This document shows positions 6,477 through 23,479 of a stretch of 64,000 nucleotides of DNA, one piece after another. The stretch lies in NCBI GenBank assembly GCA_951406725.2, contig OX597826.1, forward strand, positions 77,686,001 through 77,750,000. Reading direction: 5' to 3'. The translations under genes and the position numbers were made by a program. Below the pieces are notes generated by a model, which was not told where the DNA came from, did not search any database, and saw nothing but the letters and a program-made list of their open reading frames with translations. This DNA is from Octopus vulgaris (Eukaryota). Position 1 is the first letter of the stretch, and each line of letters begins with the position of its first letter.

Positions 6477-6703
6477 CACCATATTTTAACGACTATAAGG
6501 AACCCACTAATTTTGTGGGCTTAAAATTTGGAAAAAAAGGTTTTGTAAGGGATTATAATACTATCCATGTATAAGAAACTCCCGTATTTTTTTAACCTAA
6601 TTTTTGATGAAAAAGGGTTCTACAGTTCTGTATTTAAGGCATCATGTACATTACTTACATTATTTACATTTGACGGATATTTGTCCTCATCTTGTTTGTT
6701 GTT

Positions 6704-6749
6704 GACACAACGTTTCAGCTGATATACCCTCCAGCCTTCATCAGGTGTC
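6704..6749 (-). ncRNA. Minimal type I hammerhead ribozyme
   Basis: GACAC-CUGAUGA-A-GGCUG-GAGGGUAUAU-CAGCU-GAAACGUU-GUGUC: stem I GACAC/GUGUC, stem II GGCUG/CAGCU, palindromic ACGU in place of stem III. Confidence 0.85.
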
Positions 6750-6906
6750 TTGGGGAAATTTCGAACCTGGGTTCTCATTCCTAAGGTATTTTTCAATGTT
6801 GTTATTGTTATTATTATTATTCAGGTCACTGCCTGGAATCGAACTCGGAATCTTGGGGTTAGTAGCCTGCACTCTTAACCACTACACCATAATAATAATA
6901 ATAATC

Positions 6907-6939
<33 letters not shown>

Positions 6940-6986
6940 TTGAAAAATACCTTAGGAATGAGAACCCAGGTTCAAACTTTCTCCAA

Positions 6987-7032
6987 GACACCTGATGAAG
7001 ACTGGAGGGTATATCAGCTGAAACATTGTGTG
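6987..7032 (+). ncRNA. Hammerhead ribozyme motif, decayed copy in the inverted arm
   Basis: gacacCTGATGAagactggagggtatatcagctGAAAcattgtgt, with substitutions in stem II and in the ACGT palindrome. Confidence 0.65.
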
Positions 7033-7274
7033 TTAACAACAAACAAGATGAAGACAAATATCCATGAAATATAAATAATGTAAATAATTAAAAAGGGTTC
7101 CTTATACACATTAAAATACGGTATGCCACAAAACCTCCTAAAATTGGACACCAATATCTAAGCGTTGTCCAAGACTAATTAGGGTTAGGGTTAGGGTTAT
7201 GAAGGAAACCAAACAGTACCAAAGCATGCAATCTCCACAAACTATGAATCCACAAACACTTTCCATATGTATTC

Positions 7275-8875: not shown

Positions 8876-9919
8876 TTTATGAATTGCTCAGAAAGCTAAC
8901 AAGACACAGGAAATAGTTAACATTATTTGGTTGGATTCAATGAAAACATGGAAACTTGACAATTCCATATTTCTGAGATGAGGAATTTTTATATTCTGTA
9001 TGAGTCTGAATGGTGCCTTCATCTTGGTTGTTGCTTTCACTACATTCCAGTTGTTGTATACTCCAGCCTTCTTCAGGTGTCTTGTGGTTCACGATAATGC
9101 CTTACCTGAGATTGAATTCAGAATCTCTAGGTGACTGCACTGCATTAACCAACACCTTAAAATTGTATTAAAAGTACAGGTGTGATTAGAATGTCCAGGT
9201 ACTTACATGCTAATTCCATGATAACTGAATACTCATTGCTAAAGCCAGCAGGGCTCCATTGCCTGTTATTACACAGGATCCGGCTGTGGGGCTCATTAAT
9301 AAATGATACCACATAGTGTTAATGACTTGTGGGGGGCAAAGTTATTTTGTTATGCAACCATAATATATTGGGCCCATGAGAAAAACGAACCCTCACACCT
9401 GGGTCGTCCAAGCGCTTGCCAGTGTACCCAGCTGGAAACGAGTACTTAGCCCTTCTCAGGGCCACAGCACATGTCACGGCAGTGCTATAAACTAGGGAAA
9501 ACAATCCCACCTAAGGCGTATGAAAACAGACAGCAGGTGGTCATTTGGGAGTCATGACTCAGATGTGGTCTGACCCCCACCTCCCCCTTAGTGTTAAGAG
9601 TTAAGGACCGAAACACTTGCCTAAAGGTGGTTTGTCCTCTGAGGATCACCTGCTGTTATGCTCTCCCCGAGTTTCTTTCCACCTATATTAAAAATTTTTT
9701 ATAAGTCAGTACCATGTCCTTCTGTGTTAGCAGTGCACTGCCATAACAAATATCAGTGCTGGGTTTAATTTCTGTAGAATATCTGTAGAGACATCTTCAA
9801 CAAGTGGCCCCATAGTGTGTTCCTGACATTTCACTCAGTCACTCCACTCATGTCTAAAAGTGATGTCTTTTGCCTGAAGAGACAAAGAAGATTCGTTAAG
9901 GACTGGTGTGGTTCATTAA

Positions 9920-22155: not shown

Positions 22156-22492
22156 ACCATTTAATGTCTGCTTTCCATGCTGGCATCGGTTGGGCGGTTT
22201 CACAAGAGCTGACAAGGTCAGAAGCTGCACCAGATTCCATTGTCTGTTTGGCACATTTTCCACAGATGGAGGGATGCCTTTCCTAATGCCAACCACTTTA
22301 TCGAGTGTACGGGGTGCTTTTTTTTTGTTAACATGACACCAGCACTAGTGCTATTTTATGTGGCACCATCACCAGTGCCTCTTACATGGCACAGAACATA
22401 AAGATAGAACTATAATATATTCTATGAGCAAGTGCTCCCTTTTGGATACCAAAAATTCATTATTAAATAAAAAGTTAATAAATGAAAACTAG

Positions 22493-22677
22493 AGTTCTAT
22501 ATTTAAGGAATGAGGATTTATGTACATTATTTACTTTATCTACATTGCATTGATATTTGTCCTCATCTTGTTTGTTGGTAACACAATGCTTTGGCTGATA
22601 TACCCTCCAGCCTTCATCAAGTGTCTTGGGGAAATTTTGAATCTGGGTTCTCATACCCAAAGTATTTTTTGATGTTG

Positions 22678-22733
<56 letters not shown>

Positions 22734-23046
22734 GGGTCACTGCCCAGAATCAAACTCAGAATCTTGGGGTTAGTAGCCTGTGGTCTTAACCACGGGCATA
22801 TGGTGTTAACAGCATGGGCTACTAACCCCAAGATTCCGAGTTTGATTCCAAGCAGTGATCTGAATAATAATAATAATAACAACAACAACAACAACAACAA
22901 TATCGAAAAATACCTTAGGTATGAAAACCCAGGTTCGAAATTTCCCCCAGACACCTGATGAAGGCTGGAGGGTATATCAGCCGAAATGTTGTGTCAACAA
23001 CAAACAAGATGAGGACAAATATCAGTCAAATGTAAATAATGTAAAT
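22493..23046 (-). mobile_element. Palindromic tRNA-headed, hammerhead-bearing element, copy 2
   Basis: Inverted arms of about 250 bp centred near 22797, both with the tRNA-like segment; flanking aatgaaaactag (22481-22492) and aatgaagactag (23047-23058). Confidence 0.85.
22950..22995 (+). ncRNA. Minimal type I hammerhead ribozyme
   Basis: GACAC-CUGAUGA-A-GGCUG-GAGGGUAUAU-CAGCC-GAAAUGUU-GUGUC, with perfect stems I and II and ACGU changed to AUGU. Confidence 0.8.
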
Positions 23047-23479
23047 AATGAAGACTAGTGGTATTTTTGTCTACTGCTTCTGTGGTCAGCATTTGAAAGT
23101 ATTTGTACTTCTATTTTAACCACCATTAACTATGATAGCCGTTAGTAAATACTAAAGCTATTAGTAACAACGATAGCTACATCAATTACTACTATAACTC
23201 TCTGAAGCTACCATAGTCTCCAATAGTCACTCTTTTAGCTGTCAATATCTGAAAGAAATTACGTTGATGTGTAGTTAAGTGTCTAAACGTATTTCTATTG
23301 CGTTCGGTTTTTACAAATAATCACTAAGTCACTCACCGTGTAACATATTGAATAGATTGTGGATAAAATTAAAATATAAAATTCAAATATATAAAATAGA
23401 CTTACAAAAGAAAAACAGAGCAAATTTTAAAAAGCAAATTATTTTTTTTTGTGTTTGTGATATCAACATTGGATAAAAG

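Follow-up and report, generated by a model that had tools for sequence, protein, structure and literature searches.

A palindromic insert with tRNA-like segments in the Octopus vulgaris genome and its probable origin from a protein-coding Penelope/Poseidon element

Anatomy of the insert and its hammerhead motifs

The window, that is, the whole 64,000-nt stretch of Octopus vulgaris DNA that was analysed (genome size 2.8 Gb), contains an insert at positions 22493–23046. The insert was found to be a real palindrome, in which two arms are placed head to head inside a 12-bp target duplication. In both arms, the tRNA-like head is followed by an (AAT)n spacer and then by a core of 150 nt that contains the minimal hammerhead motif, and a 32-nt tail is attached to the left arm only. 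The left arm occupies 22493–22793 on the minus strand and the right arm 22792–23050 on the plus strand, and the two cores are identical at 130 of 149 positions. The copies of the target duplication, AATGAAAACTAG on the left and AATGAAGACTAG on the right, differ by one mismatch, and the first 4 nt of the right copy are also compatible with the arm end. At the centre, the heads are joined via a 4-nt microhomology, CCAC. The imperfect 12-bp duplication, the one-sided tail, and the tRNA-like segments standing head to head in both arms were all seen as described in the original prediction, except that neither tRNA-like segment is complete. In the left segment, the first 16 nt are missing and with them most of the A box; in the right segment, the A box has a 6-nt deletion; and the B boxes of both arms carry a C-to-T change. 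Another copy with matching architecture at a different target, also claimed earlier, was confirmed within the window; its design is identical, and its 11-bp duplication is perfect. The coordinates of all features are summarized in Table 1.

Table 1. Features of the insert and of related copies in the window
Feature	Position	Strand
Left target-site duplication, 12 bp	22481–22492	+
Penelope tail, left arm only; continues into the ORF in tandem copies	22493–22524	−
Left pLTR core, first ORF codons	22525–22675	−
Left minimal type I hammerhead motif, mutated catalytic core	22580–22625	−
Left (AAT)n spacer	22676–22734	−
Left tRNA-like segment, truncated in the A box (77-nt head, positions 17–75)	22735–22793	−
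Centre junction, 4-nt microhomology CCAC	22790–22793	none
Right tRNA-like segment from position 1; A box with 6-nt deletion, B box with C-to-T change	22792–22862	+
Right (AAT)n(AAC)n spacer	22863–22899	+
Right pLTR core up to the end without tail; 43 codons starting with the ATG at 22921 match a Penelope N-terminus	22900–23050	+
Right minimal type I hammerhead motif, intact core, putative ribozyme	22950–22995	+
Right target-site duplication, one mismatch	23047–23058	+
Another inverted pair of the insert's family, with the tail on its left arm and an 11-bp duplication	6610–7100	
Mini-element of an older related family, with an internal deletion; has a hammerhead motif, a tail, and a diverged tRNA-like head	8958–9160	−

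It had also been proposed that transcription in either direction would yield one ribozyme, and this did not hold. The left motif was altered at C3, G12, and the A15.1 region (CCTGATGA to CTTGATGA; GAAACGTT to AAAGCATT), and the catalytic core was kept only by the right motif, leaving one intact motif. Rfam gave 0 matches at the gathering score within the window, and neither a tRNA nor a hammerhead was returned up to E 5 in five other copies. Stem II of the hammerhead showed no compensatory change between the younger family, to which the insert belongs, and the older one. For a read-through RNA over the insert, a fold of −317 kcal/mol (z −31) was predicted, and such an RNA would form one long hairpin burying the remaining hammerhead motif.

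Minimal hammerheads are thought to act as dimers (PMC4209133), and the placement of the two motifs on opposite strands of the insert had been regarded as a puzzle for this reason. The puzzle dissolves because tandem copies carry two hammerhead motifs on one strand and because the Penelope hammerhead was dispensable for insertion in vitro (PMC11167929). A recurrent internal deletion, which fuses the ORF start with the following core at core position 9, was observed at four loci in the C29 and C13 regions (L427, L431, L432, and L440) and resulted in tandem hammerhead units of the younger family.

The parent element and the tRNA-like head

What the earlier reading had overlooked is the nature of the repeated unit, a pLTR belonging to an autonomous Penelope element. 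Judged from sequence comparison, each arm is the pLTR of an endonuclease-bearing (EN+) Penelope-like element of the Penelope/Poseidon type. In longer copies, the head was directly observed to be preceded by RT and GIY-YIG-type coding DNA. Among 30 loci found via the ORF DNA, three of which are segmental duplicates, the head lay directly behind the ORF in 29 and the core in 28. Similarly, all 30 loci found via a lizard Penelope protein aligned to the insert's family, 27 of them with the head behind the ORF. The core corresponds to the ORF start, with which the minimal hammerhead overlaps within the pLTR, and window positions 22921–23049 matched the N-terminus of P0011 (E 8e-5). The parent unit is approximately 2.7 kb, and in two loci (L433 and L450) the copy starts at position 1 of the head and continues across the pLTR as far as the ORF start.

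The RT of the parent was recognized by RVT_1 (E 3e-8) and has DKG and YVDD-type motifs. The C-terminus was 56% identical to P0011 and 30% to P0091 of Anolis, and one of the parent's relatives, an Anolis protein, is 44% identical. With P0011 and P0091 as alignment references, the C-terminal region was identified as a GIY-YIG-type endonuclease with a CCHH-like motif, while Pfam returned no GIY-YIG match on two fragments of the endonuclease region. The linker between RT and endonuclease, read against that of the Neptune-type L082, has no Neptune-type zinc finger. No intact ORF was present among the copies read, and metagenome contigs scanned with a single protein gave no matches. A hunt for the parent with the Pfam GIY-YIG profile recovered only other Penelope families, mostly of Neptune type, and the true parent was found flanking the pattern matches. 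As a separate observation, a young Neptune-type Penelope family (L077, L082, and others) contains numerous open frames of 781 aa along with a variant hammerhead-like motif, and this family was likely active recently.

Compared with a tRNA-Arg(ACG) gene of the host, the head was identical at 48 of 73 positions without a gap (z 9.9), the isotype being tentative as the comparison covered Arg-ACG and one odd tRNA. No tRNA was called by ARAGORN anywhere in the window, and neither ARAGORN nor Rfam recognized the head. The A box was intact in 39 and the B box in 42 of 69 arms. In inserted copies, the two boxes decay no slower than the remaining head, which is expected because inserted copies are dead. 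Directly upstream of the head in one copy (L266), a 17-nt stretch looks like a degraded inverted repeat of the head's beginning. This stretch may stem from an ancient fold-back that became fixed in the master, and it could conceal the A box of a read-through RNA. In the host genome, a tandem cluster with approximately 19 tRNA-Arg(ACG) pattern matches, some of them approximately 206 nt apart, was observed at 211.89–211.91 Mb of C2 (L280–L282).

The older family, represented in the window at 8958–9160, has its ORF start joined straight to the 3' UTR, and its units are approximately 290 nt long. Among the loci of this family (L101–L125), L117 and L123 have tandem units, others are inverted pairs, and 0 of 25 matched any of three ORF peptides. 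The head of the older family keeps the A and B boxes, while its middle differs by a 10-nt indel, which suggests an early origin of the boxes within this Penelope lineage. The copy in the window is a retrozyme-like, internally deleted mini-Penelope of the insert's lineage.

Pairing of the arms and origin of the inversion

The exact hammerhead-core pattern matched the genome 5,420 times, compared with 0 for the control. A fixed-position sample of 400 kb outside the window contained 8 matches (one of just 25 nt), and 3 of the 8 were inverted pairs; this sample suggests that the insertions number some tens of thousands. For the pair census, the first 92 of 100 matches listed on contig C1 were used, and the merging of close partners left 89 entries. 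Because the sample was selected on an intact hammerhead and either arm recruits a locus, pairs were favoured by up to approximately twofold in the resulting 48 head-to-head pairs, 38 solo copies, and 3 copies with an inverted head only. The solo class includes three segmental duplicates and both arms of one long pair (L187). A same-strand second core was present in 3 of the 89 entries and a convergent one in 1. Three loci on C1 at 7.9–9.05 Mb (L185, L186, and L187) were approximately 99% alike with a common flank, apparently owing to a recent segmental duplication, and one pair (L151) has a (CTT)n tract at its centre in place of (AAT)n and head.

The tail was present on exactly one arm in 45 of the 48 pairs, on both arms in none, and on neither in 3, two of which have tail remnants. 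The 38 solo copies comprised 18 tailed, 18 tail-less, and 2 other copies. Duplications scoring at least 9 enclosed 30 of the 48 pairs and 2 of 139 mismatched controls. Derived non-CpG variants common to paired arms numbered 25, compared with 4.5 ± 2.0 expected, and this number was reached in 0 of 1000 shuffles (39 pairs with enough sites, both window copies included); the arms of the insert at 22493–23046 have two variants in common. When the reach of the arms was compared in the 45 one-tail pairs, the tailed arm was longer in 14, the tail-less arm was longer in 17, and both fell into the same class in 14. Since neither is regularly longer, neither arm is a simple copy of the other.

A pile-up of 5' ends was directly observed at the head start. 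Among 47 arms reaching it, 30 stopped within −7 to +8, corresponding to 0.059 per nt, compared with 0.003–0.005 elsewhere. Genome-wide, there were 3,685 exact head matches, among them 250 that extend 12 nt into the ORF side and 408 exact matches to a perfect fold-back junction, where both strands of one junction can count; longer match patterns lose more copies to mutation. When 27 independent heads were sorted by eye, 11 showed a fold-back at a micro-palindrome, 4 ran into the ORF, and 12 had other junctions. Regarding orthologous loci, no empty site was seen. The contigs of organisms A and D span both junctions, and thus the insert is shared with these organisms. In organisms E and B, the right flank (approximately 4–5% different) adjoins 23 arm-like bases, followed by other sequence.

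We consider it quite probable that the insert consists of two 5'-shortened pLTR copies of a protein-coding Penelope/Poseidon element, placed head to head in one duplication, likely by a single event and from one source. In the proposed course of events, the GIY-YIG endonuclease of the element would nick both strands approximately 12 bp apart, and reverse transcription would proceed from each nick, with one start at the tail end and the other approximately 35 nt further in. Both cDNAs would stop early, and their inner ends would be joined via short homologies, often preceded by a fold-back of a few bases at a micro-palindrome at the head start. Double priming, the polymerase, and any ribozyme activity are parts of this proposal that we infer. 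In comparison, PAc, the protein of Poseidon_Ac, cuts and extends both strands, and its RT starts at two sites bracketing the tail (PMC11167929). One tail per pair, the shared variants, and the symmetric reach of the arms provide genomic support for two-start priming on both strands, matching the in vitro findings of that source. Such a palindrome is not unusual for Penelope elements, whose known signatures include the asymmetry seen here. The variants shared by the arms could alternatively have come from gene conversion between them.

On the origin of the inversion, the original prediction had preferred the integration mechanism or a palindromic master to chance adjacency. The first part stood, as 45 of 48 pairs have one tail, none has two, and the arms share private variants. 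Two independent side-by-side insertions would be favoured by the abundance of the family, with its thousands of exact hammerhead-core matches. However, a single duplication encloses both arms, an inverted neighbour within 700 nt is expected by chance at approximately 0.007, and no double-tailed pair occurred among 47 (P 1e-6 if the arms were independent); with the variants shared between arms, this account is almost certainly wrong. The palindromic master did not stand. Copying of such a master as a unit would explain why the outer ends recur and why 15 loci match the junction of the insert, but the centres differ widely among the 48 pairs, and the 15 matches compare with 3,685 intact heads genome-wide. 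Moreover, the junction lies on a microhomology that can recur, and the longer head is found on either arm, all of which makes a master highly improbable.

The next account is a fold-back of one cDNA. Here, a single cDNA would fold on a short inverted match and copy itself, and later central deletions would vary the junctions. The 408 perfect junctions, the 11 of 27 heads that fold back, and the variants common to both arms are in line with this course, the junction of the insert is derivable by a 16-nt deletion between two CCAC, and self-priming was proposed for the Penelope of Adineta (PMC3846280). However, the tail-less arm reached further 5' in 17 of 45 pairs, so that each arm has sequence that the other lacks, and the tail-less ends are confined to a narrow zone, in which 18 of the 38 solo copies end as well. 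A fold-back origin could be obscured by central deletions that followed insertion, and we regard such an origin as unlikely. The possibility that a separate tRNA-headed SINE borrowed a Penelope 3' end and spread independently was considered as well. The build of tRNA head, microsatellite, and Penelope end is SINE-like, just 250 of the 3,685 exact heads run 12 nt into the ORF side, and one copy (L182) begins at head position 1 with the duplication on both sides. Nevertheless, an A/B-box head was found without a separate lineage whose head is absent from the partner; the head belongs to the autonomous element, and short copies (35 arms) and ORF-linked copies (34) have the same polymorphic sites, with 1 of 21 listed sites at p 0.02. 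An independent SINE is therefore very unlikely, and the short copies may derive from short Pol III transcripts without forming a lineage of their own.

T-run depletion, possible Pol III transcription, and comparison with known systems

The lack of T-runs was directly observed on the sense strand, where TTTT occurred 0 times in the head and core and 0 times in a 2,280-nt majority sequence of the ORF body, the first 600 nt of which are thinly covered. In 2,280 nt, 6.2 TTTT were expected (P 0.002, compared with same-clade families of similar T content). Aged copies had 0.43 (18 in 42,117 nt), 0.18 (5 in 27,262 nt), and 0.18 (2 in 10,912 nt) TTTT per kb. Among eight other Penelope families of the genome, seven had 2.7–9.0 per kb, and the eighth (454 nt) had none. 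None of 47 same-clade families from metagenome contigs was at zero, and the 26 of similar T content had a median of 3.0 per kb, with one at 0.43; the controls in this set, for which 73 of 80 loci were long enough, are single copies. Of the same-clade families, 23 had a 3' end that could be read, and the A+B box was found in 0 of them. In L347, a same-clade Penelope on a metagenome contig, TTTT occurs once in 2,346 nt, and no A+B box match lies downstream. Under shuffles keeping the dinucleotides of the element itself, zero TTTT had a P of 0.09, and a codon shuffle, which is not a valid test on a majority sequence with frame breaks, gave a P of 0.15. The T-run analysis covers one lineage, and TTTTT is too rare to test.

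The tRNA-derived A/B-box segment at the start of the pLTR likely acts as a Pol III promoter that would set many template 5' ends. The 5'-end pile-up does not need Pol III, as 11 of the 27 heads fold back at the micro-palindrome, which could by itself produce the pile-up, and palindromes at the pLTR 5' end are known without a Pol III promoter (PMC3846280). Considered together, the A/B boxes, the pile-up, and the lack of TTTT point to Pol III transcription, possibly of the protein-coding element. A further reading is an autonomous retrotransposon that makes full-length Pol III RNA from a captured tRNA promoter in its pLTR, with a sense strand purged of terminators and intact repeats serving as SINE-like units; this reading is conceivable but rather doubtful. 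If Pol III transcription were true, it would contradict the view, expressed for LTR elements in PMC10886601, that Pol II is required by autonomous retrotransposons, the translation of an uncapped RNA would become a question, and a route would exist by which SINE-like RNA arises inside an autonomous element. In addition, the thousands of inverted pairs are potential long double-stranded RNAs. No report of a tRNA- or Pol III-bearing Penelope was among the papers listed by the literature searches, and the repeat library of PMC13282606 may contain the insert's family.

The insert resembles described EN+ Penelope/Poseidon elements. An inverted 5'-truncated copy, a tail of 30–40 bp at one end, and a short duplication are typical of these elements, as are a palindrome at the pLTR 5' end and RT followed by GIY-YIG (PMC8557442, PMC3846280). 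A pLTR with a hammerhead and the first ORF codons is likewise described for Poseidon_Ac (PMC11167929), for Pen2a of Adineta (PMC3846280), and in PMC8557442. Unlike the elements in the available descriptions, the octopus pLTR starts with a tRNA-derived A/B-box segment and (AAT)n, and its sense strand is without T-runs. Those descriptions (PMC11167929, PMC3846280, PMC8557442) give as promoter either a TATA/Inr-like motif or an internal promoter that overlaps an intron in the 5' UTR. A Pol III promoter derived from a small RNA and located in a terminal repeat, proposed as the source of templates, is shared with the TRIMp3 elements Cassandra, Helenus, and Ajax (PMC10886601). However, these are non-autonomous LTR elements of <1.3 kb, whose autonomous partners were argued to need Pol II (PMC10886601), whereas the octopus box sits in the repeat of a protein-coding Penelope.

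Short pLTR-derived units with type I hammerheads are also known from non-LTR retrozymes (10.64898/2026.07.22.740005; PMC7229834). The family at 8958–9160 and the tandems with the internal deletion fit non-LTR retrozymes as Penelope derivatives (10.64898/2026.07.22.740005), while the insert differs from them in being an inverted pair with a target duplication and no tandem array of units each with a hammerhead. As for SINE-like elements, octopus tRNA SINEs were reportedly described by Ohshima and Okada in 1994, and the SM-alpha elements of Schistosoma have a tRNA-like head. By description, SM-alpha resembles the insert in its short repeat, type I hammerhead, and SINE-like build, and no link to an autonomous Penelope ORF is described in the available part of the source (PMC8490949). 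Compared with these systems, the pair design is already described, and what is unusual is the tRNA-type promoter segment together with the near absence of Pol III stop signals.
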